This document shows positions 4,235-19,841 of a stretch of DNA of 25,833 nucleotides, piece after piece. Position numbers and translations under genes: made by a program. This DNA is from a virus (Duplodnaviria; Heunggongvirae; Uroviricota; Caudoviricetes), in the IMG/VR virus record IMGVR_UViG_2563366846_000009; one strand, written 5' to 3'. Numbering within the stretch: the stretch's first letter is position 1; every line of letters begins with the position of its first letter. The notes under the pieces are model-generated. The model was not told where the DNA came from and did not search any database. It was given only the letters and a program-made list of their open reading frames with translations.

Positions 4235-4685
4235 CCCACGTCACATCCTGGAATACATGCGACCAGTCGCCTTCGGAAGATGGCAGGCGGGGTTTTGGCT
4301 CCGGCAGGTGTTCTGCCTGCGGCGTGCCCTGACTGCTGCGCGTGATGCGAACGCGTTCCCGCAGAGGGAGCGTAAACAGGAGATCGGCGCTGTCATCGTC
4401 ATTGATAACGGCGGAGAACTTGATGTCCTGATTACGCTCCGGATTGAGCAACAACTGCGGCTGATTTTCGGATAACCACGCCAGCAGCGGCAGCGTGAGA
4501 TCGTCCAGCTCCCCGGCGTAATCCATGACAAACATCACCATCTGATAGCGGTAAACAAACGAGGGAGTTTCTCCGGTCGTTTCAATGTTGCCGCTCTCCA
4601 CGAAAATGGTGAATTTTTCCGGGTTGGCCTGACACCATCGGCATGAACGGGTCATGGCTTCACGCAGGGAATCAGTTTTCAGCAT
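4218..4685 (-). CDS. R: Tail completion protein R
   Basis: 155-aa ORF, same length as P2 gpR, directly downstream of the lysis genes. Confidence 0.7.
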   Translation of the reverse strand: MLKTDSLREAMTRSCRWCQANPEKFTIFVESGNIETTGETPSFVYRYQMVMFVMDYAGELDDLTLPLLAWLSENQPQLLLNPERNQDIKFSAVINDDDSADLLFTLPLRERVRITRSSQGTPQAEHLPEPKPRLPSSEGDWSHVFQDVTWGESDG

Positions 4686-4992
4686 GGTTGTTGTCCTCGT
4701 TGTTCAGTCGTTGCAGCCTGCGCTGTTCCAGTAATTCAATGGCCCGCTTATCGGCGTTACAGGTTTCCAGTGCGTCAAGGAGGCTGTCGCTCCATATTCC
4801 GATGTTTCCCCATGATGGCGTCGCCGGAAACGGAGGGGGAAGTACGGGGGCGGTCAGCCCTTCCGGAATGAAACGGAACGACGGCGGCAGCGCGGGCGCG
4901 TCCTGCGTGCTGCTGCAACCGCTCAGTAAAGCGAGCATCAGGAACAGCGCGGGCACATGCATCTGTCGTGATATCGTTGCGTAGCTGTTCAC
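4672..4992 (-). CDS. lysC: Outer-membrane spanin lipoprotein (Rz1/LysC-like); start probably at internal Met near 4962
   Basis: Signal peptide with lipobox (MHVPALFLMLALLSGCSS) and a proline-rich mature part. The gene starts inside the i-spanin gene in another frame and extends past its stop, as P2 lysC does relative to lysB. Confidence 0.7.
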   Translation of the reverse strand: MNSYATISRQMHVPALFLMLALLSGCSSTQDAPALPPSFRFIPEGLTAPVLPPPFPATPSWGNIGIWSDSLLDALETCNADKRAIELLEQRRLQRLNNEDNNHAEN

Positions 4993-5230
4993 GTCGGATT
5001 TCCCCTTCCTGTTGTCGGTTCTGGCGCTCTGTCATGACGTCACGCAGTACACCGGATGCGGTGCTGATGATGGTGCCGGCCTCTTTCAGGGTCCGGCTGT
5101 AATCGTCCAGTTGCGCCTGTGTATAACGGTTGTGTCCGTCTTCCTGCCCCAGTCTGAATGTCTGCCAGAGTGTTATGGTCAGCAGTGTGAGGACGGTCAG
5201 TGCCATCATCAGGATGTAACGCACTTTCAT
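4775..5230 (-). CDS. lysB: Inner-membrane spanin (Rz/LysB-like)
   Basis: N-terminal transmembrane helix (ILMMALTVLTLLTITLW) followed by a charged periplasmic region; overlaps the lipoprotein spanin and starts at the endolysin stop. Confidence 0.7.
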   Translation of the reverse strand: MKVRYILMMALTVLTLLTITLWQTFRLGQEDGHNRYTQAQLDDYSRTLKEAGTIISTASGVLRDVMTERQNRQQEGEIRREQLRNDITTDACARAVPDARFTERLQQHAGRARAAAVVPFHSGRADRPRTSPSVSGDAIMGKHRNMERQPP

Positions 5231-5775
5231 GACTGGCCTCCGGTGTCACGTAAGCACCATGCCCGAAAATCAGTACGACGGTTAACCAGTCCCTGTGAGC
5301 GTTCGCCGCCGCTGTTCACGAAGTCAGTCAGTCTGTTGCACATGTCAGGCCAGTTGTGCGCCTGTGCATGTTTCCAGATAGTGGTGCGGTGGTAGTTACG
5401 GTTCTTATCCCTGAACCACATAAGATTTCTGCATCCCAGATTAAAGGCAGCATCTGTCATTGCCTCAAACGCGGACTGTGGCATGGCGTTGCCGCTGAAG
5501 TTCTGATTTATGCAGTTTTCTGCATGTTGCATATCATTAACCCAGCGCCCGGCGACTTCCGTTTCGGTGTGCAGACGATTTTCCACATGCCCGGTCGAGC
5601 CGCACCCCACGGTCATTACCCCGGCAATATCCCGGTAAGGCGTTGCGCGACAGTCCTCCCATGTGGCAATGCGGATTTGCGCTTCCGGGCTGGTCCGGAG
5701 TTTGTGGGGAGCAATGGAGAACCCCAGCGCCACAATGGCAGCTACGGCGTAACGTTTAACGGGCAGCTTTATCAT
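5227..5775 (-). CDS. K: Endolysin (phage lysozyme) with hydrophobic N-terminal segment
   Basis: 182-aa ORF in the P2 K position. N-terminus (KRYAVAAIVALGFSIAP) looks like a signal-anchor, suggesting a SAR-type endolysin. Confidence 0.8.
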   Translation of the reverse strand: MIKLPVKRYAVAAIVALGFSIAPHKLRTSPEAQIRIATWEDCRATPYRDIAGVMTVGCGSTGHVENRLHTETEVAGRWVNDMQHAENCINQNFSGNAMPQSAFEAMTDAAFNLGCRNLMWFRDKNRNYHRTTIWKHAQAHNWPDMCNRLTDFVNSGGERSQGLVNRRTDFRAWCLRDTGGQS

Positions 5776-6058
5776 GTGTATCGTTATCCCGCAGAATGTT
5801 CAGAGCCTGACGCTCACTGTCGTGAAGTGGCCGGGCGTCTGACTGTGCCAGGATACTGGCGATGAGTTCATTGCGACGCTGCATGACGGTTTCCATCAGG
5901 CGGCGATGTCGCCAGGCATGTAATGCAGACAGAGAACCGAGTAACAACCCGGCAAGGGCGATTTTTTCACTGATGGTCATCACGCCTATTGTGGTGGCTG
6001 TGACTGATGCCCAGAAGGTGATCCAGTCACTCACCCGCTGAAAAAAACCTGTCACCAT
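5756..6058 (-). CDS. Y: Holin
   Basis: Internal ATG at 6058..6056 gives a 100-aa protein with hydrophobic helices (WITFWASVTATTIGVMTISEKIALAGLLLGSLSALHAW) and a charged C-terminus, in the P2 Y position. The upstream 108 codons of the tracked ORF are low-complexity and overlap gene X. Confidence 0.7.
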   Translation of the reverse strand: MVTGFFQRVSDWITFWASVTATTIGVMTISEKIALAGLLLGSLSALHAWRHRRLMETVMQRRNELIASILAQSDARPLHDSERQALNILRDNDTHDKAAR

Positions 6059-6255
6059 AGCTGTATCATCTCTCGTTGTTTTTTCTTCTCCGGTTCCGGC
6101 ATTTCCACCTCCTGTCCGGCTTCCAGAAATACCTGTCGGCAGAGTCCGGGGTTGGCCTCCAGCACCTTTTCGGTGACGCCCTGAGTTCTGCCGTAGTGCC
6201 GGAAACAGAGTAAATCCACGGTGTCTCCCTGAATGGCCCTGACTTTCATCAGCAC
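6052..6255 (-). CDS. X: Tail protein X
   Basis: 67-aa ORF, same length as P2 gpX, between holin and L. GTG start, or ATG two codons in. Confidence 0.8.
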   Translation of the reverse strand: MLMKVRAIQGDTVDLLCFRHYGRTQGVTEKVLEANPGLCRQVFLEAGQEVEMPEPEKKKQREMIQLW

Positions 6256-6752
6256 AACTCCGCAAACAGGCGGGGGCGGCCCAGAATGTCAGCAATGGCC
6301 CATCGCACATCACGCCACAAATCATCTGTCTGTGCGTCAAGGGCATCGGCCCGGCGCTCCCCCTTGTCGGTGGTGTCTGCATCCCTGTACCGTTCCAGAA
6401 TCAGGGCACGGGTGGCAGCATAAACCGCGTTACGCCAGTGCCAGAGATTGACGCTTTCTCCGTTAATTACGGGTGCCGGAACATCAGCCAGCGTCTGATG
6501 GCCAGCCGCCTGCTGTTCCTGCTGCCATGCCTCCAGCTCGCGGGTAACATGTGCCACGGCCCCGGTGGCGGTGTGCAGCAGGCGGGAGGTGGTCACGCGG
6601 CCCGGCAGTCGTACCGCCAGACGCAGCTCACGCAGCACAATATCCGGCCAGAATGCACCCGCTGAAATACGGGTATCACCATCATCGGTATCGGTGATGT
6701 CGTCCTCTGCGGGGCCGGGGTTGGTTCTGGCAACCATACTCATGGGATTCAC
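6249..6752 (-). CDS. L: Head completion/stabilisation protein L
   Basis: 167-aa ORF at the P2 L position and size. Confidence 0.8.
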   Translation of the reverse strand: MNPMSMVARTNPGPAEDDITDTDDGDTRISAGAFWPDIVLRELRLAVRLPGRVTTSRLLHTATGAVAHVTRELEAWQQEQQAAGHQTLADVPAPVINGESVNLWHWRNAVYAATRALILERYRDADTTDKGERRADALDAQTDDLWRDVRWAIADILGRPRLFAELC

Positions 6753-6776
6753 TCCTGAAAAAATCGGGCGGTGGGT

Positions 6777-6818
6777 GCGCGGTGTAAACGGTTACGGAGT
6801 CAAACCGTAACACCGCGC
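6777..6818 (-). terminator. Two-stem GC-rich hairpin between M and L followed by a T-run on the minus strand (possible attenuator)
   Basis: gcgcggt...gttacgg agtcaaa ccgtaac accgcgc forms nested stems; the minus strand continues with gattttttcagg before the L ribosome-binding site. Read by eye. Confidence 0.35.
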
Positions 6819-6844
6819 ACGCCGCCCGCTGACGGGGTCAGTCG

Positions 6845-7645
6845 TTAACCGCGCTTCGCCTTCTGCGTCGCGGTGGTTTTTCGTGTTGCAGGCTTCCGCG
6901 TTGTCTTTTTACTTTTGCTGCTTTCGTTCTGCGCCTGCGGTGTGCTGGCATCTTCTGGTGCGACTGCGGAATCGGCTTTTTTCAGGGCGCGGGAAAGGGT
7001 TGCAATCTCGCGTTTCACACCTGCGTTCGGGTTCAGGTGCATTGCTTCGCGCAGCAGCTTCAGTGACAGGGCCATGCTGTCCGCATCACTCAGGCCACGG
7101 CGGGCAAAGGCGCACGCCTTGCATAATTTGGCGCGCACTTCGTCCGGCATGTCCTGGTCGGTGACAATCTCCCGGAGGGTATCCAGTGGTTCGATAAAGG
7201 CGGACAAATCCGCGTCTGCATCCGTCCCGGCCTGCGTCAGTACCGGGTTGCAGATTTCTTCGGTCAGCACTGTGGCAGCAGTACGGCCAAAGTTATCCGG
7301 CATGATGAGGTTATGACGGACCACATACGCCCCGATACGCAGCGCCAGCGGAAGATCGCCGCAGTCAATCGCCCACACCATCAGCGTGGCAATCACTTCG
7401 TCCTGCTGCCCGCCGTCAGCCTCCAGCGTTCCCTCAATCCAGCCGGAAAAGTCCGGCAACAACTCTTTTTTGATGGCGGCTTTCGCGCTTCTGGCCTGTA
7501 CGCCCTTAAGCCGGGCCTGTGCCAGACGCAGACGATACAGCACCTCTTCATGCGCGGTACGCGCGGCGTGGTCCGCGCCTTCATTCGCCCGGCCTGCGCG
7601 CTGTGCCATCACGTTCTGCCAGTGTTGCTGTGCAGGAGTAATCAT
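6845..7645 (-). CDS. M: Terminase endonuclease (small) subunit M
   Basis: 266-aa ORF at the P2 M position with a basic Lys/Thr-rich C-terminal tail. Confidence 0.8.
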   Translation of the reverse strand: MITPAQQHWQNVMAQRAGRANEGADHAARTAHEEVLYRLRLAQARLKGVQARSAKAAIKKELLPDFSGWIEGTLEADGGQQDEVIATLMVWAIDCGDLPLALRIGAYVVRHNLIMPDNFGRTAATVLTEEICNPVLTQAGTDADADLSAFIEPLDTLREIVTDQDMPDEVRAKLCKACAFARRGLSDADSMALSLKLLREAMHLNPNAGVKREIATLSRALKKADSAVAPEDASTPQAQNESSKSKKTTRKPATRKTTATQKAKRG

Positions 7646-7690
7646 TTTTTCTCTCCGTTACAGGCGGGCATGATGCCCGCCGTGAGTTGA

Positions 7691-8743
7691 TTAGCTGTCG
7701 GCGAACTTCAGGCCAGTGACCATCGCGCACTTGCCATAGTCTTCAACGACATAAGCGTCATTGATGGACTGGTAGGTGGCGATGCGGTTGTATTCCGGTT
7801 CGTCTTTCATCAGGCGACGCATTGAACCTTTCTGCCAGTAAATCGACAGGTTGTTGAACGAGGTGATCAGCATCGTTGCATCCGGGAAGAACGGCGCAAG
7901 GAACACGCCCAGCCCGCCAATGGTGCGCGATGACAGGATGAGCTGCCCGGCGAGTAATTCCGCATTGGGACTCTGGCCGCTGATGCTGTTCAGCACGGGC
8001 AGACGCAGCGAGTTAAACAGGTTGCGCCCCATAATCACCACGAGGTCGTCTGCTTCCTTGTGCCATTCATCCAGCAGGGATGAGCGCGCGTCCTGTACCA
8101 GTGCATCAGGGTTCGCATACTTACCCGCGTGCGCCACGGTGTTGTCCATGTTGCGGGAGGTCAGTGTCACGTCATTCATTACGCGCTCGCTGGCGTTGGT
8201 TCTGATGTGCTCCAGCCATCCCACGTTAACGTCCTGAAGCAGCTTGTTGGCGCTGAAGTTGGACTCATCCGCGTGAGACGTGCCGTTGAAACCGATCATG
8301 ATGCGATCAAGTGCCACCTGTCGGGCAATCTGTGCGCTGATGCGGGACTGAAAATCAGGGTGTGCCGACCAGGCATCAAGCTGCGGATACGAAATAAACG
8401 TGTCGTAGTTCACCTGTTCGCACTGGTATTTGCGGTTTTTCAGATCAACCACGTTATTCGGGTTACGGCGTTTTGTTCCGTCATAACTGGTATTCGTGCG
8501 TGCAATCGGTCCTGTGGTGTCCAGGAGGATTTTTTCGCCTTTCTGGTCGGTCACGCCGATCACGTTAATTTTTTTTGTAAGTTCGGTGCTATCCTTTGAG
8601 GCGTTTTCAAAACGCTGCTGCACCGCAGGTTCCGCGGTAAATCGCGATACCAGTGCGGAAACCGGGATATTATTAAGCGACGCCTGCTGCGCCATATAGC
8701 GACCCAGCTTGTTGCGGGTAATATCTGACATCACCAGATTCAT
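7691..8743 (-). CDS. N: Major capsid protein N
   Basis: 350-aa ORF at the P2 N position and size. Confidence 0.85.
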   Translation of the reverse strand: MNLVMSDITRNKLGRYMAQQASLNNIPVSALVSRFTAEPAVQQRFENASKDSTELTKKINVIGVTDQKGEKILLDTTGPIARTNTSYDGTKRRNPNNVVDLKNRKYQCEQVNYDTFISYPQLDAWSAHPDFQSRISAQIARQVALDRIMIGFNGTSHADESNFSANKLLQDVNVGWLEHIRTNASERVMNDVTLTSRNMDNTVAHAGKYANPDALVQDARSSLLDEWHKEADDLVVIMGRNLFNSLRLPVLNSISGQSPNAELLAGQLILSSRTIGGLGVFLAPFFPDATMLITSFNNLSIYWQKGSMRRLMKDEPEYNRIATYQSINDAYVVEDYGKCAMVTGLKFADS

Positions 8744-8766
8744 AAAAAATTTGCTCCTTTGTCTTA

Positions 8767-9603
8767 TCAGAAGTCAGCCAGCTGGTCATTACCGGCACCC
8801 GTTGAGGTGAACCGGCTCTGCGGATCGCTGTCCTGCGTGCGCAGCTTTTCCTTCAGTGCTGCCAGCTCTGTGGTCAGTGACGTGATTTTCTGGCTGTCCT
8901 GCTGATGGCGGGTTTCCAGTGCATTAAAACGGTCGATAATGTCAGCCTGTGACGTTGCGACGCCTTCCACCGCTTCCTGAATACGGGAGAAACTGGCGTC
9001 ATCCGCTTTGCGGCCACGGCCAATAATCCCCATTACGCGGTTAAACCACTGGGTGCCTTCTTCCTGGCGTTGTTCGGTGAGTTCGATGAGTTCCGATTCC
9101 ATAGCGACGGTGAACATCGCCACGTCTCCCTGCTGACAGTTGAATGTCATCAGTTGCATGCGTTGTTGTGCCGCAAAAGCCAGACGTTCCGTGCCCAGAC
9201 TGGCGGGGGTGTCGGTCATGGCCAGCCCGCGCAGGTAAGGGCCACCCGTGATGGTTGACTGAGGTTCCAGCTCAATACTGGAGTAAATTTTTTTACCATC
9301 GTTAAGCAGGGACATCATGCGAGCGGTCGGCTCAATTTCGGCATACAGTGCCGTGCGTCCTGCCAGCGGGCCATCGGTTATGTCTTCGGTGCTCAACCCC
9401 ACAACATCGCCCATAGCGGAAAACTCGCTACCGGGGAGTGGTGACAGGATGTGCTCAATATTCACACGTGCACCATAAACGGACGGGTTATAACTGGTGG
9501 CGGCAGCTTTCAGCATGGCGCCGTTGATTTCGCGCCCGTCTGCCGTCACACCGGAGACAGCCACACGAAACTTTTTGCGGGATGTCTTTTTTTCATTAGC
9601 CAT
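8767..9603 (-). CDS. O: Capsid scaffolding protein O
   Basis: 278-aa ORF at the P2 O position and size, upstream of and co-oriented with N. Confidence 0.85.
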   Translation of the reverse strand: MANEKKTSRKKFRVAVSGVTADGREINGAMLKAAATSYNPSVYGARVNIEHILSPLPGSEFSAMGDVVGLSTEDITDGPLAGRTALYAEIEPTARMMSLLNDGKKIYSSIELEPQSTITGGPYLRGLAMTDTPASLGTERLAFAAQQRMQLMTFNCQQGDVAMFTVAMESELIELTEQRQEEGTQWFNRVMGIIGRGRKADDASFSRIQEAVEGVATSQADIIDRFNALETRHQQDSQKITSLTTELAALKEKLRTQDSDPQSRFTSTGAGNDQLADF

Positions 9604-9755
9604 AGTTTTGTCCTCTGACTGGTTCTACGGTCATGATGGCAAAGCGTAACAGGCTGATACAAAGGGCTTTTGTTGTAAGAAAACGGCCAGAACAGGGGGT
9701 TAAGGAGAACGGTTTCGCGCGCGGGTAATCTTCCTGTAATTACTCAGGGGGAGCA
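9604..9755. promoter_or_regulatory. Divergent late promoter region between O and P
   Basis: 152-bp gap between divergent O and P starts, where P2 has its Ogr-activated PO/PP promoters. Only partial TGT/ACA dyads seen by eye (tgatACAaagggcttttgtTGT). Confidence 0.45.
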
Positions 9756-11507
9756 ATGATTCAGGACGCTTTTGTGCGCCAGCGTGCGCGACAACTTTAC
9801 TGGCAGGGGTATCCGCCCGCAGAAATATCACGTCTGATGGGAATAAACCCGAACACGATTTATGCGTGGAAAAAACGGGACCAGTGGGATGAAACGCCAC
9901 CCGTGCAGCGTGTCACGCAGTCCATCGATGCGCGCCTCATCCAGCTTACTGAAAAACAGAATAAAACAGGCGGTGACTTCAAGGAAATAGACCTGCTGAC
10001 CCGGCAGCTTAAAAAGCTGCATGATGGCCAGCCGGATGCGACGGCCGCAGGAAAGAAAGGCCGGGCGAAAAAACTCAAAAATCATTTCACGCCGGAACAG
10101 ATTGCCGCACTGCGGGAAAAAATCATCAGCAGGCTGGAGTGGCATCAGCGGGGGTGGTTTGACTCCCTGACCCTTTGCAGGGAAGCCGGGATACGTAACA
10201 GGATGATCCTGAAATCCCGACAGATTGGGGCGACCTGGTATTTTGCACAGGAAGCACTGTTGATGGCGCTGCGTGACGATGTGGCGCAACCTTACCAGCG
10301 TAACCAGATTTTTTTGTCTGCGTCGCGTCGTCAGGCGTTCCAGTTTAAAAACATTATTCAGAAGGCCGCAGCTGAAGTCGATGTGGAGCTGAAAGGGGGC
10401 GATAAAATCATCCTCTCCAACGGCGCAGAGCTGCATTTTCTCGGCACTTCTGCGGCGACGGCACAGTCCTACACGGGCAATTTCTATTTTGATGAATTTT
10501 TCTGGGTCAGTCGCTTTGCTGAACTGCGCAAGGTGGCTGGCGCTATGGCAACCCTCAGCGGACTGCGGCGCACCTACTTCTCCACGCCATCCACCGAAAC
10601 GCATGAGGCATACGTTTACTGGAACGGCGACCGCTGGAACGAGAAAAAGGCCGCGCATAAACGCCAGCGTTTTTCTGTGGACTGGAAAACGCTGCATAAC
10701 GGGCTTATCTGCCCTGACCGGACGTGGCGGCAAATTGTCACGCTGGAAGATGTGGTTAATCACGGCTGGAAACACACCGATATCGACGAAATTCGTGATG
10801 AAAACACCGAAGACGAGTTCCTCAATCTCTATATGTGTGAGTTTGTCCGCGAAGGGGAATCGGCATTTAACCTGAATATCCTGATTGGCTGCGGTGTTGA
10901 CGGATACGACGACTGGAAAGACTGGAAACCTTTTGCTCCCCGCCCGATGGGGAATCGTCCGGTATGGATTGGATATGACGCAAACGGCAGCAGTGGCAAC
11001 GGCGACAGTGGCGCTGTATCCGTGGTGGTTCCTCCGGCTGTTCCTGGTGGCCGTTTTCGAACGGTGGAGACGCGACGCGTTCAGGGGCTGGAGTTTGAAG
11101 AACAGGCCAGAGTCATTGAAGAGTTCACGTATCGCTACAACGTGGAACACATCGGCATTGATGCGACGGGCGGGCACGGGGATGCCGTTTATCAGATAGT
11201 GAAAAGGTTTTTTCCCGCTGCCATCCCGTACACCTTCACGCTGTCATCAAAACGGTCGCTGGTACTGAAAATGCTGCAAATAATGCGCGCCGGGCGGTGG
11301 GAATACGATCGCGCCGAACGCGAGCTGGTCGCAGCCTTTAACGCTGTGCGTAAGGTGAAAACACCAGGCGGTTTTATCACTTACGAAACGGACCGCGCGA
11401 GGGGGATCAGCCACGGCGACCTTGCGTGGGCAACCATGCTTGCTGTCATTAACGAACCGATTGGCGGCGAAGGAGAAAACGAGCGTTTCACGGTTATGGA
11501 GTTCTGA
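9756..11507 (+). CDS. P: Terminase ATPase (large) subunit P
   Basis: 583-aa ORF with N-terminus MIQDAFVRQRARQLYWQGYPPAEISRLMGINPNTIYAWKKRD, size and position of P2 gpP. Confidence 0.9.
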   Translation: MIQDAFVRQRARQLYWQGYPPAEISRLMGINPNTIYAWKKRDQWDETPPVQRVTQSIDARLIQLTEKQNKTGGDFKEIDLLTRQLKKLHDGQPDATAAGKKGRAKKLKNHFTPEQIAALREKIISRLEWHQRGWFDSLTLCREAGIRNRMILKSRQIGATWYFAQEALLMALRDDVAQPYQRNQIFLSASRRQAFQFKNIIQKAAAEVDVELKGGDKIILSNGAELHFLGTSAATAQSYTGNFYFDEFFWVSRFAELRKVAGAMATLSGLRRTYFSTPSTETHEAYVYWNGDRWNEKKAAHKRQRFSVDWKTLHNGLICPDRTWRQIVTLEDVVNHGWKHTDIDEIRDENTEDEFLNLYMCEFVREGESAFNLNILIGCGVDGYDDWKDWKPFAPRPMGNRPVWIGYDANGSSGNGDSGAVSVVVPPAVPGGRFRTVETRRVQGLEFEEQARVIEEFTYRYNVEHIGIDATGGHGDAVYQIVKRFFPAAIPYTFTLSSKRSLVLKMLQIMRAGRWEYDRAERELVAAFNAVRKVKTPGGFITYETDRARGISHGDLAWATMLAVINEPIGGEGENERFTVMEF

Positions 11508-12553
11508 TGAGCAGAAAAAATAAAAAAGTGCGCATGAGTTCACGCATTGATCTCGCTGATGTGCTCAGGAAAGAATCGTCGCTCAGTGCATTCACATTTG
11601 ATGGTCCTTACCGCCTGACCGGGCATGATTTGCTGGACAATATGTACTGTGCTGATAACGGTCGGTGGTATGAAACCCCGGTGGACTGGTACGGTCTGGC
11701 AAGAGCAGCCCGGCAAACGTCCTGGCATCAGTCTGCGCTTTACTTTAAGCGTAATGTATTGCTCGGTTGCTATATTCCGCACCCGCTGCTTTCCCGGCAG
11801 GATTTCTCGGCGCTGGCGCTGGACTGGTTTGTGTTCGGTAACGCATTCCTTGAGCTTCGAAGCAATATGCTCGGCGAACCACTTAAATTACGGCACGCCC
11901 TGGCGAAATACATGCGACGCGGAAGCGATCTTGAATCATGGTGGTATGTGCAGGATGGCAAGGACGCGTTTCAGTTTCGCCCTGGCAAAGTGTGCCACCT
12001 GATGAATCCTGACATTAACCAGGAAATCTACGGCATGCCGGAATATCTCGGCGCATTACTCTCGGCCAGCCTGTCTCATTCGGCGGACATGTTCAGAAAA
12101 CTGTATTACGACAACGGCTCCCACGCCGGGTGCATCATCTACATCGGTGCAGCGCAGGTAAGCCGCGAAAGCATGGACTCCCTGAAGGAAACGCTACAGG
12201 GTGCGCGTGGTGGTGGTGCATTTAAAAACGTGCTCATTCATGCGCCCAACGGGGGCAAAGAGGGGGTGCAAATTTTGCCGTTCCAGCAGATCACCGCAAA
12301 GGATGAGTTCATGAATGTTAAGGCGGCATCCCGTGATGATGTGCTGGCTGCGCACCGCGTTCCGCCGCAACTGATGGGGGCGATGCCGGGTGAAAAAAGT
12401 GCGTTTGGTGATGTGGAGAAGGCCGCGCGGGTTTACGCAATTAACGAGCTGATGCCCGTCATGGAGGCCATGAAGCACATCAATGACTGGCTTGGCGAAG
12501 AGGTGATCCGTTTTAACTCTTATGCACTTCTTGATGAAAAAACAGCCCCGTGA
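11507..12553 (+). CDS. Q: Portal protein Q
   Basis: 348-aa ORF overlapping the P stop by one base, size and position of P2 gpQ. Confidence 0.9.
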   Translation: MSRKNKKVRMSSRIDLADVLRKESSLSAFTFDGPYRLTGHDLLDNMYCADNGRWYETPVDWYGLARAARQTSWHQSALYFKRNVLLGCYIPHPLLSRQDFSALALDWFVFGNAFLELRSNMLGEPLKLRHALAKYMRRGSDLESWWYVQDGKDAFQFRPGKVCHLMNPDINQEIYGMPEYLGALLSASLSHSADMFRKLYYDNGSHAGCIIYIGAAQVSRESMDSLKETLQGARGGGAFKNVLIHAPNGGKEGVQILPFQQITAKDEFMNVKAASRDDVLAAHRVPPQLMGAMPGEKSAFGDVEKAARVYAINELMPVMEAMKHINDWLGEEVIRFNSYALLDEKTAP

Positions 12554-12570
12554 TGGGGCTGTCCTTTTTA
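12540..12570. terminator. Bidirectional intrinsic terminator between convergent Q and the 174-aa gene
   Basis: Hairpin cagccccgtgatggggctg flanked by an A-run upstream and tccttttta downstream, so it reads as stem plus U-tract on both strands. The Q stop codon sits in the loop. Confidence 0.6.
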
Positions 12571-13092
12571 CCAGAGTTGAACCATTTTCTGGGTGCCGTC
12601 AGGCTTGAGATTATCAATTTCAGAGAGAACGTAATATTGAATGGCTTCACAAACGGTGGTGTATGGTGAATTACCTTCTTTAAGTGGCACGATATTATTA
12701 TTAACGCGAACCTGTATTTCATCGTTATACATTGCGATCGAAAGAGGAGTATGTACGAACGCGACTTCGCCAGGTGTGTCGTCAACCACTGTCTCAATGC
12801 TAAAAGTCAGTTTTCGCTCATCATTGCTGCCTCTTGCTTTGGGGGTTGCGGCAGGAATCTGGGATAAAGGCATTCTGCGAAATCCTTCGGCCGTTTCCAG
12901 TCCGCATGAAACGTAATGCTGGCGATTACCGTCGATATCTGTCCACGCTTGTGACGGCAGATCCAGCGAGATTTCATAAGCATCAACAATTCCCTGGGCA
13001 AGGCGTACAAGCGGGGTCAGGTCTTCATTGCGGCGAAAGCTCTCCTTTACCTGCTCTCGTTTTTCTCTTAACTGCTTGTAATTAATGACCAT
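12568..13092 (-). CDS. Hypothetical 174-aa protein, low-GC cargo gene next to the portal
   Basis: ORF with ATG at 13092 preceded by GGAGG at 8-nt spacing; the track extends it to a GTG at 13131. No recognisable motif. Markedly AT-richer than flanking phage genes. Confidence 0.55.
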   Translation of the reverse strand: MVINYKQLREKREQVKESFRRNEDLTPLVRLAQGIVDAYEISLDLPSQAWTDIDGNRQHYVSCGLETAEGFRRMPLSQIPAATPKARGSNDERKLTFSIETVVDDTPGEVAFVHTPLSIAMYNDEIQVRVNNNIVPLKEGNSPYTTVCEAIQYYVLSEIDNLKPDGTQKMVQLW

Positions 13093-13193
13093 AAGACAGC
13101 CTCCATTGATTTCTTTGCTCGTATTTTGCACTTATGAAGTGTGGTCGGCAAGGTGTCGCATCACTGACGCGCTTCGCTTGTCTGCTGCTTCGC

Positions 13194-13216
13194 CGGGGCA
13201 TAAAAAATTTATGCCC
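13194..13216. other. Perfect 10-bp-stem hairpin upstream of the 174-aa gene
   Basis: ggggcataaa aaa tttatgcccc, about 100 bp upstream of the start at 13092. No adjacent T-run on either strand. Confidence 0.4.
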
Positions 13217-13504
13217 CGACTCTCCAGCTCCTGTATCAATCAGATAATTTCACAACGCCTTCCAGCTTATCGCCATCATCGACGGCCAGGCTCTTACGCA
13301 ATCCCACCGCGCTGACTGCATGTTCTCGCCGCCTCAGTGCGATTTTGACGGCCTTATCTGTCACCCCATCAAATCAAAAGCCCTCACGTCTTTTTCACGC
13401 TCAGCGTGAGAAAGACAGCCATTCTGTTGTGTCGCTGCGACATCGTTCAGGGAATGCTATTTACCCCCTGAAACGCGGGCTGTTCCCCCGTCACCTGCGC
13501 GCAG

Positions 13505-13624
13505 AAAAAACGCGTTTTTTTGTGCATGCACGGATCCTTGACGGATCCAGCCGCCATGCGGGCCGGAAGGGTAAAAAGTCGTTCAAAAAAATTGTGCAAA
13601 TTTGTGCACTATTGTGCATTGAAA
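13505..13624. promoter_or_regulatory. Cluster of palindromes and 10-bp-phased TTGTGCA direct repeats in a 520-bp non-coding region
   Basis: Palindrome aaaaaacgcgtttttt (13505..13520), palindrome gtgcatgcac (13522..13531), ggatcc-N4-ggatcc (13532..13547), then TTGTGCA at 13593, 13603 and 13613. Confidence 0.45.
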
Positions 13625-13650
13625 TAAACGCCCTGGAGGAGGGCGTTTTA
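13624..13650 (-). terminator. Intrinsic terminator downstream of the 135-aa gene
   Basis: Stem aacgccct / agggcgtt with loop ggagg directly after the stop at 13652; minus strand continues tttatttc. Confidence 0.55.
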
Positions 13651-13651
13651 C

Positions 13652-14059
13652 TTATCTTTTATAGCCTTGCCCCTTCCTGGCCAGCGCCCTGATGGCCGGG
13701 CGTGCCAACACCATATTTTGGCAATGATGAATTGCCCGGCAAAATTCATCTCTACCCATTGGATGCTCAACTGGCAACGTTAAATACAGGTTCCATGCGT
13801 CGCCTAAAAGTTGGGCTATCTTTTGTTCTTCAGATGTCAGCAAGCAAGCGGTATCCGTAAAATAATCATACTTTTCATGTATGTTATTTAACGGTTTTGT
13901 CTGTAGTGCAGCCTGAGCTATACGGTATGCCTGAAGCATACTGGCGTCGTTGATATCCATTCCGAACGGAATTTCTGATGATTGTGACTCTGCATCTTCA
14001 AGCCTGGCAATTTCTTTACGTAAGAAGTATTTCAACTCTTGTTTCTGTTTTCTGTTCAT
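13652..14059 (-). CDS. Hypothetical 135-aa protein, translationally coupled to the ClpX-zinc-finger gene
   Basis: ATG overlaps the upstream stop (ATGA at 14056..14059). Low GC. No recognisable motif. Confidence 0.6.
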
Positions 14060-14388: not shown

Positions 14389-14653
14389 TGTGTCCCCCTT
14401 GTTTATGTTCCCGGGTTAAAGTCATCAGGGCGGATGCGCCCTGATGTTGTGTTATTCGGGAAATAACGCCCGGATATTTCCGGCCATCTGACTGGTTATC
14501 TGTGCGGTTGGTACTGGCTGTGACACGGGGCGTTCTGTCCTACAATCAACCTCAGAGCATGGGCTATCCGGGATGGCCTCATACCACGCCAGCGTCGACT
14601 GATAGTTTTGTGCTGCCTCACGCAGTGCCTGGTAATTAATTTCGCTCACTGGT
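14389..14653. repeat. Copy B of a duplicated module (block P 14389..14541 plus block G 14542..14653)
   Basis: Block P is about 93 percent identical to 15601..15756 (3' end of parR, intergenic hairpin, RBS and ATG of the next gene). Block G is about 90 percent identical to 15493..15603 (5' end of the 213-aa gene). Block order is swapped relative to copy A. Confidence 0.75.
14452..14649 (-). CDS. Small chimeric ORF (65 aa from a GTG start): conserved SEINYQALREAAQNYQSTLAWYEAI motif fused to a ParR-like C-terminal tail
   Basis: GTG at 14649 is preceded by GGAGG at 6-nt spacing. The N-terminal 25 aa match the 213-aa protein exactly despite six synonymous DNA changes. The C-terminal 27 aa (ERPVSQPVPTAQITSQMAGNIRALFPE) match the ParR-like protein tail. 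The track calls a longer 98-aa version from 14748. Confidence 0.4.
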   Translation of the reverse strand: MSEINYQALREAAQNYQSTLAWYEAIPDSPCSEVDCRTERPVSQPVPTAQITSQMAGNIRALFPE

Positions 14654-14965
14654 TGCCTCCTGTTTGAATCTGCGCACGGAAAGAATTGGGCATTTTGTAA
14701 TCCCGCCCTCTTTCTCCCATCGGAGGAGCGGGAATCGATATGCTTCAAAATTAAGCCCCGCAGAGCGATCGCTTTGGAAGCATTTCTTACCTACCACCCA
14801 AACGTTTTCGAATCGACGCTCAATGCGAACTGCCGTCCTCCATCCGAATGGCGCGCCTGCATTTACGGCTGCATTTTTTGTCGGAAAAGTTGGCACGGAT
14901 GACACAATTTCATCAACACGCACGCTTAGGTGGCAATCGTCGACATAACTAATTGAAGCTCTCAT
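14636..14965 (-). CDS. Hypothetical 109-aa protein, coupled to the 213-aa gene
   Basis: ATG at 14965 overlaps the 213-aa stop (ATGA). No recognisable motif. Confidence 0.5.
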   Translation of the reverse strand: MRASISYVDDCHLSVRVDEIVSSVPTFPTKNAAVNAGAPFGWRTAVRIERRFENVWVVGKKCFQSDRSAGLNFEAYRFPLLRWEKEGGITKCPILSVRRFKQEATSERN

Positions 14966-15603
14966 GACTGAACTCCTTTGCGAAGCTGCTCCGCACAATG
15001 CAGCAGGGCGTCCGTCGCTTCTTTCACCGTAACGATGTCGCCATCGTCCAGCCCGGCAACCGTCGCGTCCTTAACGAACACCGAGCAAAGGTCATTAAAC
15101 GCCTGCGCTCGTACTTCAGCCAGAAAAGCATTGGTGGCTGGGGTTTCCGGCAATAATCCGCCAACCAGTTCTATTTCTGTTCTGAACCGGGAACTAGACA
15201 CAACGCGATAAGTCAGGTTCGGCATTCTGGCTGCCACTTGCATCTCAAACTCCTCTCCAGATTCCAGCCCGGCTTCATGGGCGTAATCAAGCGGGCTTCT
15301 GACAGGCTCTGAAGCTTCGCCGCCCCAGTAAATCAGGTTCGACTTCAGCCCTGCATTCTCCGCAGCCAGCACCGCAAGATTAGCCTCCAGCTCTGCAATA
15401 CGCTTGTTTTGGGCTTCCCGCTCATCCAGCAGCTCGGCGATAATGTCCATTTCCTGATGACGGATTTGACGCTTAAACGCCGCCACTGCTTCGCTACAAT
15501 CCTGCTCAGCATTTGGGTTATCCGTGATGGCCTCATACCACGCCAGCGTCGATTGATAGTTTTGTGCCGCCTCACGTAATGCCTGATAGTTGATTTCGCT
15601 CAT
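14962..15603 (-). CDS. Hypothetical 213-aa protein with conserved N-terminal motif and central coiled-coil-like region
   Basis: ATG preceded by AAGGAG. Heptad-like stretch REAQNKRIAELEANLAVLAAENAGLKSNL and an acidic C-terminal half. Possible resemblance to Ead/Ea22-like prophage proteins is unverified. Confidence 0.65.
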   Translation of the reverse strand: MSEINYQALREAAQNYQSTLAWYEAITDNPNAEQDCSEAVAAFKRQIRHQEMDIIAELLDEREAQNKRIAELEANLAVLAAENAGLKSNLIYWGGEASEPVRSPLDYAHEAGLESGEEFEMQVAARMPNLTYRVVSSSRFRTEIELVGGLLPETPATNAFLAEVRAQAFNDLCSVFVKDATVAGLDDGDIVTVKEATDALLHCAEQLRKGVQS

Positions 15604-15756
15604 TATGTCGTTCTCCTTGTTTATGCTCTGAGGTGGAGATCAGGACGAACTCGCCCTGACGTTGTGTTATTCAGGAAATAACGCCCGGATATTTTCAGCC
15701 ATCTGACTGGTTATCTGTGCGGTTGGTGCTGGCTGTGACACGGGGCGTTCCGTCCT
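15493..15756. repeat. Copy A of the duplicated module (block G 15493..15603, block P 15601..15756)
   Basis: Counterpart of 14389..14653; includes the imperfect hairpin caggacgaactcgccctg just after the parR stop. Confidence 0.75.
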
Positions 15757-15978
15757 GTTTTGTGTCACTGATAACGCCTCATCGTCAGCCCATGCAGCCA
15801 GTCGGTAAGCCTCTGCCGGATTCATTTTCAGAAGTGCCAGCCCGGCCATAAAAGCCACGCGTTGACCGCTTTTGTGGGCTTCTGGTGTAAGGCTGTCCAG
15901 CCAGGCGCATGCTTCGCCTTCGTTCTTGACGGCGGCGGGCTTCAGATAGAAACTTATCCTCCTGGTTGATGTCGCCAT
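15667..15978 (-). CDS. parR: ParR-like partition adaptor
   Basis: ATG at 15978 sits 4 nt after the parM stop with AAGGAG upstream. The 103-aa product aligns by eye with plasmid R1 ParR (ISFYLKP..., AGLAL..., C-terminal NIRALFPE versus ILRSLFPKE). The track shows a longer ORF from 16113. Confidence 0.7.
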   Translation of the reverse strand: MATSTRRISFYLKPAAVKNEGEACAWLDSLTPEAHKSGQRVAFMAGLALLKMNPAEAYRLAAWADDEALSVTQNRTERPVSQPAPTAQITSQMAENIRALFPE

Positions 15979-15982
15979 TGAT

Positions 15983-16942
15983 TTACTCCTTGTCCATTGC
16001 GTGCAGCCCATTAACCAGAGCAAACTGTGGCACCCCGTCCGCAATGAAAGTCGCATTAACTCCGCAGGCTTCGCGGATAGCGGGTGCCACAATCTCCGCT
16101 CCTCCACCGACAACCATCACCCGCCCGTAACCCGAAAAAACCGCCAGCGCGCGGATCACGCGTTGCTTCAGTGTTTCTTCCTTTTCACGAATAACCGCCA
16201 TCAGGCTGGCGTAATGCGCGTCATTGTGGATGTGCTGGCGCAGCCAGGCTTCATCATGGCGATGTTCGATAATGGTATTGGCGATGTGGTGACTGGTGCG
16301 CATACCGTTAGTGGCCATCACCGACAGTACGGCATCGGCCATCAGAGAAACGCCTACGTGTGGATCGCAAAACACCTGGCTGATACCTGCCAGTTGCCCC
16401 TGAACCTTTGCCACATCCAGCGTGGTTCCGCCCAAATCCACAATCAGCAGGGATTCAAACGGACTCATGTCAGCCAGTGCCTTAAAGCCAGCCGGAATGG
16501 ATTCAGGCATAACCCGCACGTTACGGATAGTGAATGCTTCGCCGTTCTGGTACTTCACCGGGCGCATAACGTTCGCTTTTTTGCGGTTGATGTTGGCCAT
16601 GTCCGGCTGTGCGTTTGTGTCGAAATACTCGCTCAGTGGCAGGGTGACAACCACATCCACCTCCTGTGGCGTGATGCCTGATTTGACCAGCGCGTGATGA
16701 ATGGCAATGACATTCACATCACTGTACTGGTATTGCGTGTCGGTTGTCTGGACAAAGCGATCGCTGACCGGATCAAAACCATAGCGCACGCCATCAAGCA
16801 TGTAGTTCGCGGGCTGCGTGCCACCGAACGGCGCAGACCATTCCGACTTGAAGCTGTTCGGGCTGATAGCGTTGCGGCGTTCGCCGTTCTCAGTCCATGC
16901 CAGCTTGATGTTGGTGGAGCCGTCGTCGATACAAATTTTCAT
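15983..16942 (-). CDS. parM: ParM/StbA actin-like partition ATPase
   Basis: 319-aa protein with extensive colinear similarity to R1 ParM: IDDGSTNIKL, ISPNSFK, YSDVNV, HHAL, MPESIPAG, SLLI(V/I)DLGGTTLD, LSGIS, GVSL, GGGAE, LVNG. Confidence 0.9.
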   Translation of the reverse strand: MKICIDDGSTNIKLAWTENGERRNAISPNSFKSEWSAPFGGTQPANYMLDGVRYGFDPVSDRFVQTTDTQYQYSDVNVIAIHHALVKSGITPQEVDVVVTLPLSEYFDTNAQPDMANINRKKANVMRPVKYQNGEAFTIRNVRVMPESIPAGFKALADMSPFESLLIVDLGGTTLDVAKVQGQLAGISQVFCDPHVGVSLMADAVLSVMATNGMRTSHHIANTIIEHRHDEAWLRQHIHNDAHYASLMAVIREKEETLKQRVIRALAVFSGYGRVMVVGGGAEIVAPAIREACGVNATFIADGVPQFALVNGLHAMDKE

Positions 16943-16971: not shown

Positions 16972-17086
16972 CGTTTACGGGATTCTGAAATCCCGCTTTT
17001 GCCTGTTTTGTGCGCGCTTCATATATCGCGGCACGTTTTTTGCTCATTTACGGGATTTGTGAATCCCGTTTTTGTCTGTTTTTTGT
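16972..17086. repeat. Two tandem about 40-bp repeats, each a 7-bp-stem hairpin plus T-tract, between the parM start and the A stop
   Basis: R1 at 16972..17012 (cgggatt ctga aatcccg, then cttttgcctgttttgtg) and R2 at 17044..17086 (cgggatt tgtg aatcccg, then tttttgtctgttttttg). R2 lies inside the last about 22 codons of the A ORF. Confidence 0.6.
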
Positions 17087-19841
17087 TTCCACTGGTCAGG
17101 CCACCCCGCAGCAGGTCTGCTTTGCGGCGGGCGCGTTCAGTGGTTTCACTGATTCTCTGTGTGTGCTCTGCGTCGCGGATGGCGCGCAGCATGTCAGAAA
17201 GCACGGTAACGGGGGTTTTCATGGTGTTCTGGCCCTGCTGAAGTGTGGATGCCAGGCGTGCGGCGGCTTCAGGGGCTGATGCCCCCAGCTGTTCCAGATA
17301 GCTGGCGACCGGGTTATGGCGGATCTCCGTGCTGCTTACGCCGTGATTGCGGCTCAGGCGCTGCCAGAGCTGCGTGATTCGGCTGTCCTGGCGGGTATCC
17401 GGTTTGCGTACAATTTCAAATCCCTGCGGTGCAATGATGCTGCCGTCAACGTACAGACTGCCGCCCCGTAACAGGTGCTGCATCTGCTGTTCACCGATAT
17501 GCAGGCCGAGAGATTCAGCAGACTCCCGCCATTCTTTAGCGAGTAATTCGTGGTTATCAGGCAAAGTCCGCTGCTGTTTGCGGCTCTGTGTCCAGCTCTG
17601 CATTTCATCACTGCTGTTTTTTGCCTGTTTGTCACGAAGCGAACGCATCAGCGTCCGGCGTTCGTGCCGTTTCAGTGAGCGCATCCATTCGTTCACTTCA
17701 ACGCCGTCAGGGAGCTGCGGCCACGGTGCTGACCGTTCTTCCGGCTGTTCTGTCCCGTTGTTGTCCGTTTCCTGTACACGAGGACAGTTATTGCCACGAG
17801 TCCAAGGGGCGGCAGGGCCGCCCTGAAGGTCAAAACCATTTTCGCGGGCGCTGTCTTCCGCTTCCGGTTTACGTCTTACCAGCTTCCAGTTATCCGGATG
17901 CGTGCACACACGGGAGGATTCCCCGATGAGTGGTGACCAGATCCCGTAAATCTGTACGCTCTGTTCGCCGTAATCGTTCAGCTCATCTGCGAGGTCGTAG
18001 GCGGTGCGAATCAGGTAGTCTTTACGTGGAACAAGTACGCCACCCTGTTTTTCAATGTAGGTGGCAAAACACCCGGCATCAGCGGCAGCAAGAACCGCAT
18101 CCATTGCGTCATCCTTCAGCCGTTGCGGGCCTTCCGGGTTGCGTGCCATCTGGCTGGCAAGGCGGCGCAGTTCACGCCACACCTGACGGGAGGGGATGCC
18201 AAAGAACTGGAACTGGCGGACCCGGTGAAGGCGCGCCCAGCCGATGGCGCGCTCCACGCTCTCGGCCATTGATTTTCCGGTTTCGTGGTCAACGCGTGGT
18301 TTGCCCGTTTTCGGGTCGATGCCATCCACGGCGCGGCTGTCCAGGTTCTTTCCGATGTAGGTGGCGATGTAGCTGGTTGGCGTGCCTTTTGAGCCGTCGA
18401 CATACTCCGCCTTAAAGCGCGGAGTTATGTCATTGCCCAGCTCGTGGCGGTCTTCGCGAATGGCAATATCACGGGTGATGTCCACGATGCTGTCGATTTC
18501 TTCAGGATGTGCAAAGACCATCATGTGCCAGTGCACCGTGCCTTCATGATGAGGCTCCGCCGTGCGGATGCCATACCAGCGCAGGCCGTCGCGGTTCAGT
18601 TTTTTGCGGACCGCCGCAAAAAACGTGTTAACCAGGTAATCGCTGGAGTCGCGCATGGTGGCCCCGTTCCATTTGGGGTTCGGATGACCGTTCTCCGTTG
18701 TTGCGTGGTATTTTGACGGGCAGGTGACAGTCAGAAACACCGCTTTGTCACCACGGGCTTCGGCCAGAAGTTCCAGCCCCTTCATGGTGGCCATCATTTC
18801 TGCCTTACGGTGAACCGGGTTACTTACTCCCGCGTAATACACTGTCTCGAGATCAATCGTGAACCCGTCTTCATTTTCCAGCATGAAACTTTTCAGGAAA
18901 TCGCGTGTTTTCTCGCGCTGTGCGCGAAACTCGCTTAACGCGTCCTGGCTCAGATAGGGTGATGTTTTTCTGGAAACCAGACAGGCGGCGCGGAGTTGTT
19001 CTTCCCGCCACTCACAACGTAACAGCCACAGTTTTCGTTTCCACCATTCCGCACAGGTCAGGCGAAGGATTGCGCCCGGCAGCAGCTCCGTGTCCGGTTC
19101 GTTCCTCTGGTCTTTGTCTGTTGTCAGTGCGTCATAATGTGGAGGCATGGCGTGCAGGTGTAACGCCATGCGGGCCAGCATCTGATACGCCTTCAGGGTT
19201 ACATCCATGGTCAGCTCGCCATCGGTCGCGCCAAAGCCATCGCAGAGTTTTTCGAAGGTGCTGCTGAACATCGCCGCCGTCATGGTGGCCAGCGTCTGTA
19301 TCTGGTGCTTGTTGAGCTGCGGCAGGTAAAGCAAATCGTCCAGGCGTTCGCGTCCGGCAAGGGAGCGATAACCCGGTGTCAGCCAGCGGCTGTCGGTGCG
19401 GTCCAGACGTTCGAATATTTTGCGCAGGGTTCCGCGTGCATAGCGTTCCGCCTGCCAGCTCTTTTTGCCTTTCCGGCGATCGGCTTCCTGTTTTTTGCGC
19501 AGGAAGGAGAGGTGGCGAATAAGCGGATCGCGCAGATAGGACGGCAGCAGGCGCAGCGAGGCCATGGCTTCATCCACCGCACCGCGTGCCTGTTTTCTGG
19601 CGTCTCCTGCCAGTGTGATGGTTTTGTCCTGTTTTTCCTGTGCGTCCAGGCTTTTATTAATCAGGTTGCCCAGCGGCGTGGCGGAGAACGCCGCATCAGC
19701 CATTTCCTGGCGGCGCTCGTTCTCTGCCCGGTAGGCATCCAGCCAGGAGGAAAGCGCGGATTCAGGAGCGGGGATCCCCGTTCCTTCACGCCCGACTGCG
19801 TGGCGCGGTTGTTGCCAGTCCCTGATGTACTCTGCCGTCAT
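17019..19841 (-). CDS. A: Replication initiator A (rolling-circle, HUH-type)
   Basis: 940-aa ORF containing EPHHEGTVHWHMMVF and YIATYIGKN, matching conserved P2 gpA motifs. True start may be internal; the ORF is longer than P2 gpA. Confidence 0.85.
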   Translation of the reverse strand: MTAEYIRDWQQPRHAVGREGTGIPAPESALSSWLDAYRAENERRQEMADAAFSATPLGNLINKSLDAQEKQDKTITLAGDARKQARGAVDEAMASLRLLPSYLRDPLIRHLSFLRKKQEADRRKGKKSWQAERYARGTLRKIFERLDRTDSRWLTPGYRSLAGRERLDDLLYLPQLNKHQIQTLATMTAAMFSSTFEKLCDGFGATDGELTMDVTLKAYQMLARMALHLHAMPPHYDALTTDKDQRNEPDTELLPGAILRLTCAEWWKRKLWLLRCEWREEQLRAACLVSRKTSPYLSQDALSEFRAQREKTRDFLKSFMLENEDGFTIDLETVYYAGVSNPVHRKAEMMATMKGLELLAEARGDKAVFLTVTCPSKYHATTENGHPNPKWNGATMRDSSDYLVNTFFAAVRKKLNRDGLRWYGIRTAEPHHEGTVHWHMMVFAHPEEIDSIVDITRDIAIREDRHELGNDITPRFKAEYVDGSKGTPTSYIATYIGKNLDSRAVDGIDPKTGKPRVDHETGKSMAESVERAIGWARLHRVRQFQFFGIPSRQVWRELRRLASQMARNPEGPQRLKDDAMDAVLAAADAGCFATYIEKQGGVLVPRKDYLIRTAYDLADELNDYGEQSVQIYGIWSPLIGESSRVCTHPDNWKLVRRKPEAEDSARENGFDLQGGPAAPWTRGNNCPRVQETDNNGTEQPEERSAPWPQLPDGVEVNEWMRSLKRHERRTLMRSLRDKQAKNSSDEMQSWTQSRKQQRTLPDNHELLAKEWRESAESLGLHIGEQQMQHLLRGGSLYVDGSIIAPQGFEIVRKPDTRQDSRITQLWQRLSRNHGVSSTEIRHNPVASYLEQLGASAPEAAARLASTLQQGQNTMKTPVTVLSDMLRAIRDAEHTQRISETTERARRKADLLRGGLTSGNKKQTKTGFTNPVNEQKTCRDI

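Follow-up and report, generated by a model that had tools for sequence, protein, structure and literature searches.

A probable, diverged cos site with a phased TGCA array in a P88-like prophage of the P2 family

Beside the portal gene of a P88-like prophage in the viral record IMGVR_UViG_2563366846_000009 lies a structured non-coding stretch (positions 13093-13651, the left-hand gene starting at an ATG at 13092), and we conclude that its right-hand part only, some 165 bp at positions 13452-13618 on the plus strand, is very probably the diverged cohesive-end site (cos) of a P88-type P2-like prophage. Positions are those of the window, by which we mean the whole 25,833-nucleotide stretch analysed, itself a P88-like prophage of the P2 family (Xuanwuvirus, Peduoviridae), and the limits given for cos are those of the sequence common to distant prophages and a satellite-like element. 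A first-pass annotation, made from the letters alone, had offered the entire stretch as a candidate cos site or regulatory hub, expecting cos nearby by synteny; a profile match to P4, 186 and P2 located cos there, and confined it to the right-hand ~165 bp. The element is in itself ordinary, a P2-like prophage cos in diverged and unannotated form, and the modestly interesting result is that a phased array of TGCA motifs holds a fixed position within cos in P2, 186, P4 and the P88-type family alike.

Syntenically, the stretch occupies the position of the P2 cos. The portal gene gpQ (11507-12553, plus strand) lies to its left, and a ParM-like gene, gpA (17019-19841) and an integrase lie to its right. 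The capsid genes and the gene for the small terminase subunit gpM (6845-7645; PF05944, E=4.5e-37, 36% identity to P2 gpM) are on the minus strand, and gpQ shares the plus strand with the gene for the large terminase subunit gpP (9756-11507), which was taken from the list of open reading frames (ORFs) and is annotated as terminase large subunit in P88, P88_4B11 and PhiR44_2. This order is the P2 map reversed, and P2 carries cos between gpQ and the accessory genes on the gpA side (P2 records; PMC9122126), the very interval in which positions 13093-13651 fall in a window that also encodes gpP, the presumed cos nuclease, and gpM, presumed to read cos. The stretch is 92-96% identical in 16 phage records, and it occurs in about 1140-1150 of 5426 complete E. 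coli genomes (its cos core in 1151), nearly always unannotated: no cos feature lay under the matches in the phage or RefSeq rows listed, which had nothing, small hypothetical ORFs or the portal gene there instead, and the papers on P88 and Citrobacter phiSM contain no discussion of cos.

At greater distance only 13474-13618 survives, with 72-77% identity at about 40 portal-linked loci whose flanks are unrelated (in Citrobacter, Edwardsiella, Serratia, Symbiopectobacterium, Kosakonia, Pantoea, Erwinia, Brenneria, Klebsiella and other genera), and Enterobacter phage phiT5282H matches this part alone. Its near-invariant blocks are CCCCCG (13485-13490), TGCGC, TTTTTGTGCA (13516-13526) and an A-tract with TTGTGCAAATTTGTGCA..TTGTGCA (13584-13618). 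We built a family profile from a BLAST and MAFFT alignment of 41 related loci, searched it by nhmmer, and reconstructed the circular junctions at cos for P2, 186 and P4 from records that annotate the 19-nt ends or begin with them. The profile aligned window 13474-13618 with the mapped cos of P4 (E=1.5e-9, over 142 nt), 186 (E=3.7e-7) and P2 (E=0.007), with the same orientation relative to the portal gene in P2 and 186 as in the window, and found no other match below E=1 in the remaining 25 kb of the window; alignment against the P2 and 186 cos regions, which the first-pass annotation had proposed as a check, bears the cos assignment out when run in this form.

The aligned segment spans, in P4, 186 and P2 alike, the classical core of about 55 bp known from P2 and P4, which consists of a GCGCGC flank, the 19-mer, a dyad and TTTTAATGCA (PMC5694545, PMC9594776). 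The window has CGCGG, a 19-mer, TGCGCGC, a dyad and TTTTTGTGCA at a spacing identical to that of the P2-family core. Its predicted cohesive-end 19-mer, GCTGTTCCCCCGTCACCTG (13479-13497, +/-2, plus strand), the equivalent of cosN, falls into gapless register with the 19-mers of P2, 186 and P4 around an invariant CCCCG. Compared with that of P2 (GGCGAGGCGGGGAAAGCAC) it is identical at 10 of 19 positions in this register and at 13 of 19 after a 2-nt shift, which is why the P2 cos escaped both the eye of the first-pass annotation and a search of the window with up to three mismatches, whose only return was a chance match at 21296; the site is very probably present, in diverged form. A subgroup of relatives bridges the two forms: it reads GCGCGCGCTTGCTCCCCCGCCTCGCCTGCGCGC, plainly the P2 cohesive-end sequence (reverse complement GTGCTTTCCCCGCCTCGCC), where the window reads GCGGGCTGTTCCCCCGTCACCTGCGCGC, and so carries a P2-type 19-mer, CTTGCTCCCCCGCCTCGCC, at the cos position. 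The exact 19-mer of the window occurs in at least 120 IMG/VR stretches, and the 80 that we fetched are all P2-like prophage contexts. Identity of gpP is 84% within a 19-mer type and 71% between types, and that of gpQ 80% against 73%, comparisons that phylogeny confounds. Another P2-like lineage (E. coli AMSCJX04, NZ_CP058308.1, 5990-6150 of the locus) has the cos variant GGCTTTCCCCCCGTCACCTG with the degenerate repeats ATGTGCA, TTGTGCG and CTTGCA, so several cos specificity types coexist in E. coli.

Several observations weigh against this placement of cos. The nick positions are deduced from homology rather than from mapped virion ends, the boundaries of the 19-mer are uncertain by 2 nt either way given the 10-13 of 19 matches to P2, and none of the 80 fetched IMG/VR stretches with the exact 19-mer ends at it. 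Furthermore, the linear record of P88_4B11 (NC_049391), the sole record derived from a phage genome rather than a prophage, is broken at window position 13573/13574, 76 bp from the predicted nick and inside the conserved core. Taken at face value, this break would mean that P88-type phages are really cut near 13573, next to a GC-rich segment, and that the 19-mer homolog is vestigial. We consider this highly improbable, since CCCCCG and the flanking TGCGCGC rank with the best-conserved columns of the family, the identical 19-mer is retained by the satellite-like element described below, and phage records often start at arbitrary points; we regard the P88_4B11 break as one of these because conservation around 13573 is poor within the family. 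The only anomaly that sets P88_4B11 apart from the 5426 E. coli genomes is found elsewhere, at 13475-13479: over 3305-3325 of that record, equivalent to window 13470-13490, it has a T>C change and a 5-nt deletion (GCGGG) that occurs in none of those genomes. This deletion sits at the predicted top-strand nick and would fit an assembly error at a physical end, which is only suggestive.

The site is delimited further by a small, satellite-like element integrated next to hpt in E. coli ETEC1747 (NZ_CP122722.1, 4283914-4296067, especially 3151-10628 of this locus). Its genes code for an integrase, an 891-aa toprim primase-like protein, Icd-like and Ogr/Delta-like (zinc-finger) proteins, a MazEF pair and a P2-family major capsid protein of its own (PF05125; 423 aa, extended at the N-terminus), and the 12 kb examined contain no annotated terminase, portal, tail or ParM-like gene. 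Its sole similarity to the window is a 154-bp core with 79.7% identity between unrelated flanks, and this core has the identical 19-mer, the T-run with TGCA, a CCAGTACTGG dyad, the A-tract and three TTGTGCA repeats, all at the offsets seen in the window. The similarity begins near 13452 and ends directly past the third repeat, which delimits the functional unit to about 13452-13618. In P2 and its satellite P4, too, cos is the sole common segment (PMC9122126, PMC9594776), and the element parallels that pair in sharing cos alone with the phage, mobilisation being putative; P4 has no capsid gene, however, so that one of its own is unusual for a P4-like satellite. The element suggests that P88-type phages have parasites of their own. 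It came from the search of E. coli genomes, and the 80 fetched IMG/VR loci included no further satellites.

The most conserved block of the predicted cos is an A7 tract followed by three TTGTGCA repeats (13584-13618, plus strand), which begin at 13592, 13602 and 13612, 10 bp apart, and place TGCA at 13595, 13605 and 13615; a fourth copy of the word lies at 13520. Counted from the first base past the 19-mer, TGCA falls at +25, +97, +107 and +117 in the window and in almost every relative, at +25, +97, +107 and +119 in P2, at +25, +31, +97, +107, +116 and +120 in 186, and at +25, +31, +97, +107 and +120 in P4. Among the exact-19-mer IMG/VR loci with enough flank (n=77), 70 have it at +25, 68 at +97, 67 at +107 and 61 at +117, with all four in 56. 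The repeats singled out by the first-pass annotation are accordingly shared by related phages, P2, 186 and P4 included, in the form of TGCA at fixed offsets. The motif search that it recommended gave a split answer: as a single word TTGTGCA is not enriched (8 in the window, 6.6 expected), whereas the window has one copy of the triple array TGCA-N6-TGCA-N6-TGCA and 100 shuffles have none. The TGCA at +25 closes the classical 55-bp core, and the array at +97 to +117 lies outside it. Between the two, a GC-rich dyad such as CCGCGCCAG..CTGGCGCGG lies at about +48 to +70 in many members, P4 and 186 among them; P2 has none, and in the P88 lineage a GGATCC duplication takes its place.

Judged by sequence and position, the array is a conserved component of the predicted cos, and phased repeats acting as a protein-binding array fit its near-invariance and its fixed place across the family. 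A/T tracts (A7, AAATTT, TATT) alternate with GTGCA at a 10-bp period, which puts the TGCA motifs roughly on one helical face, and the DNA is probably bent. Functionally, the array is most likely a docking array for the small terminase gpM: the repeat word differs by clade (CATGCA in P2, 186 and P4, TTGTGCA in the P88 family), with gpM sharing only 36% identity across the clades, and this favours a phage-encoded reader. There are points on the other side. Docking of gpM is deduced indirectly and the array could be bound by a host protein instead; the gpM family has no solved structures; and in P2 the third repeat overlaps the -35 hexamer of the old promoter (hexamers read from sequence), so that part of the conservation of the array in P2 could have another cause.

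That the region is cos with its repeats bound by a host architectural protein, or serving as a cosQ-like termination signal, is unlikely, though it deserves to be taken seriously. Alternation of A-tracts with GTGCA at a 10-bp period is typical of bent or wrapped DNA, a near match to an integration host factor (IHF) site, TTCAA-N5-TTG, can be read by eye ahead of the array, and lambda cos both uses IHF and has a separate cosQ. On the other hand, the repeat word varies by clade although the hosts overlap, and the IHF match is one base off consensus. We consider it quite improbable that the array and palindromes form a transcriptional control region for the flanking accessory genes, the regulatory hub of the first-pass annotation, a suggestion that we abandon for want of any support for a transcriptional hub. 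The third TGCA of P2 does overlap the -35 of the old-tin promoter (its transcript starts are annotated), and on the minus strand GTGCA/TGCAC with the T-run scores as a weak terminator. However, in the window a terminator and a convergent gene adjoin the array, leaving a rightward promoter nothing to transcribe; a consensus promoter scan called no promoter-like site in 13400-13650; the array folds no better than shuffled sequence (z -1.0); and the genes downstream are wholly different among relatives, in which the array and its distance to the 19-mer are fixed. Readings of the repeats as a late promoter (TGT-N12-ACA) or as CRP sites were ruled out on sequence and distribution.

ParMRC centromeres are arrays of ~11-bp iterons, and P88-type phages encode ParM-like and "partition protein" genes 2-3 kb to the right, which together could make the TTGTGCA repeats a parC-like partition centromere for ParM/ParR-like genes rather than a part of cos. 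This we hold to be extremely improbable. P2, 186 and P4, which are not known to carry ParMR genes, have the array too, at the same distances (+97, +107 and about +117) from their cohesive-end sequence, and it is kept by the satellite-like element, in which the 12 kb examined contain no annotated ParM-like gene. A parC would be expected to have about 10 iterons directly upstream of parM and to be restricted to parMR-bearing elements; here there are three repeats only, 2.3 kb from parM and not directly upstream of it.

Returning to the array as a packaging element, we propose, with rather less than even confidence, that the repeats at +97, +107 and about +117 are a universal P2-family packaging part outside the 55-bp core which docks gpM, that the repeat word and the 19-mer type set the specificity between helpers and satellites, and that P88-type phages have cos-mimicking satellites of their own, some of which encode a P2-type capsid protein themselves. 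We found no description of the +97 to +117 array as a P2-family packaging part in the literature searched, and the papers on P2/P4 cosmids give no minimal-cos map. Longer cos flanks raise P2/P4 cosmid transduction at least 10^4-fold (PMC9594776), which is consistent with function outside the 55-bp core.

Mechanistically, the terminase (gpP with gpM) would recognise 13452-13618 on replicated phage DNA, and gpP would make staggered nicks around GCTGTTCCCCCGTCACCTG, at 13478|13479 on the top strand and 13497|13498 on the bottom strand (+/-2 nt), giving 19-nt 5' overhangs as in P2, 186 and P4, with a predicted portal-side end of 5'-CAGGTGACGGGGGAACAGC. The DNA would then be threaded into the prohead. 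Recognition would be asymmetric, reaching about 27 bp towards the portal gene and about 120 bp the other way, where the T-run with the TGCA at +25 is followed by a variable segment (GC-rich or dyad), the A-tract, and TTGTGCA at +97, +107 and +117 on one helix face. By analogy with lambda cosB and gpNu1, the repeats would most likely dock a gpM oligomer on bent DNA.

The other motifs of the stretch named by the first-pass annotation (a hairpin, palindromes of 16 and 10 bp, a GGATCC duplication) are, like the three TTGTGCA repeats, all present where it placed them, and most of them have a narrower distribution than the array. Three palindromes abut at 13495-13531, in the right half of the classical P2/P4 core: CTGCGCGCAG (13495-13504), which that annotation had not listed, the perfect 16-bp AAAAAACGCGTTTTTT (13505-13520) and the 10-bp GTGCATGCAC (13522-13531). 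Within them only TGCGCGC and TTTTTGTGCA, which includes the TGCA at +25, are conserved; as a fold they are unexceptional (z -1.5), and a 16-bp palindrome somewhere in the window is unremarkable, as 43% of shuffles have one too. Across the window there are 13 perfect 10-bp palindromes, fewer than the roughly 30 that dinucleotide-preserving shuffles predict, and 3 of the 13 fall inside 13495-13531; the depletion may reflect restriction-site avoidance in a phage genome. The direct duplication ACGGATCC (13530-13537 and 13541-13548, plus strand), with its two GATC sites, is specific to the P88 lineage, and only close P88 relatives share the GGATCC duplication and the perfect 16-bp palindrome, several even of these reading AAAAAGCGCGTTTTTTT instead. 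Most relatives of the P88 and phiT5282H types keep a GATC (Dam) site about 36 nt past the 19-mer, and the window has it twice (13532-13548); P2, 186, P4 and the subgroup whose 19-mer is of the P2 type lack it.

To the left, 13093-13451 is a non-coding spacer of the P88 lineage, absent from the satellite-like element and from distant relatives. Hairpins with stems of at least 10 bp occur at four places where 0.19 are expected. The hairpin CGGGGCATAAA/TTTATGCCCCG (13194-13218), described by the first-pass annotation as having a 10-bp stem, measures 11 bp (11-13 bp) with a 3-nt loop and no U-tract. Folding gave -18 and -24.5 kcal/mol (z -4.2 and -5.5), and the hairpin is almost invariant in seven P88-like relatives, lies about 40 nt past the portal stop in P88 and is no part of the core found in the satellite-like element; it might act on the portal operon as a terminator or insulator. 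A second hairpin (13388-13416; -19 kcal/mol, z -5.3), missing from the first-pass list, contains the 15-bp perfect palindrome TCACGCTCAGCGTGA; its core is kept in P88-like relatives, its outer pairs are kept inconsistently, and it is absent from the satellite-like element. It lies ~75 bp on the portal side of the 19-mer, and a loosely similar GCGCT(C/G)AGACG stands about 45-50 bp from the P2 and 186 19-mers. Our guess is that these two left hairpins serve between the portal operon and cos as terminators or insulators. At the right edge, an intrinsic terminator hairpin (13626-13648, z -4.6), likewise missing from the first-pass list, closes the leftward accessory genes, the nearest being a 135-aa ORF (13652-14059). 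It is outside the conserved cos core and variable among relatives, whose alignment diverges directly past the third repeat.

The absence of a credible ORF from the stretch, asserted by the first-pass annotation, is borne out. Small ORFs are annotated in this region in the P88 and PhiR44_2 records, yet substitutions among seven close relatives show no codon-position bias: a 42-aa candidate (13236-13364, minus strand) has 9:10:9 by codon position, with no third-position excess, and a 76-aa candidate (13085-13315, plus strand) has 12:9:12, and we reject both as genes. The covariance models of Rfam 15 gave no match up to E=1 across 12900-13800.

Between the portal gene and the spacer, the window carries a cassette of about 610 bp (about 12554-13163) holding a 174-aa ORF (12568-13092, minus strand) of no assigned function, which comes from the ORF list, is hypothetical in PhiR44_2 and has no Pfam or PADLOC match. 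The untranslated 5' region of this ORF (13093-13163, minus strand) probably holds the cassette promoter, TTGCCG-N17-CAAAAT as read by eye, with a GGAGG ribosome-binding site; the consensus promoter scan did not call it. The cassette's own terminator (12542-12562) overlaps the portal stop. In P88 the cassette is missing and the portal stop is directly followed by GACGCGCTTCGC, and IMG/VR relatives fall into two classes, in which gpQ starts 1357 nt (without cassette) or 1971 nt (with cassette) before the 19-mer. The interval between cos and gpQ is a reported insertion hotspot (PMC5694545), and presence or absence of the cassette among relatives fits such a hotspot. On the other side, in the interval from gpA to cos, lie the ParM-like and "partition protein" genes (window 14452-16942; 4231-5506 of another P88-type record), which suggest a plasmid-like segregation function in an integrating phage.

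Practically, locating cos would give correct genome ends for P88-type phages (Xuanwuvirus and related) and removes spurious small-ORF calls. The ~165-bp module could be used for P88-type cosmids or transducing particles, beside the P2/P4 systems being engineered, and the spacing common to P2, 186 and P4 points to the TGCA array as a candidate binding site of P2-family small terminases.

Compared with known systems, the site agrees with the cos of P2, 186 and P4 in lying next to the portal gene, in its putatively homologous, CCCCG-centred 19-mer with GC-alternating flanks, in its T-run with TGCA at +25, in the array at +97, +107 and about +117, and in having a satellite-like carrier. It departs from P2 at 6-9 of the 19 positions of the 19-mer, and from P2, 186 and P4 together in its repeat word (TTGTGCA rather than CATGCA) and in the dyad by the 19-mer, which is A/T-rich in the window and GC-rich (CCGCCC/GGGCGG) in the three phages; the GC dyad near +50 of the P4/186 type is replaced by the GGATCC duplication. 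The cos of P2, 186 and P4 is mapped, with 19-nt 5' cohesive ends, whereas that of the window is predicted from sequence. A further diverged P2-family cos that keeps the 55-bp core is that of Ralstonia phages phiRSA1 and phiRSY1, GGTGAGGCGGGGTCCAAC (PMC5694545), which, in a different host clade, likewise adjoins a cos-gpQ hotspot with inserted ORFs. A lambda-type cosB, with R-sites, a gpNu1-family terminase and an IHF site, is not what the window has: its small terminase belongs to PF05944, its IHF-like match is one base off, its array is on the far side from the terminase genes, its predicted overhang is 19 nt rather than the 12 nt of lambda, and there is no sequence homology. The resemblance would be functional only, in that both sites appear to combine a nicking site with an asymmetric array of small-terminase sites on bent DNA some 50-150 bp to one side.

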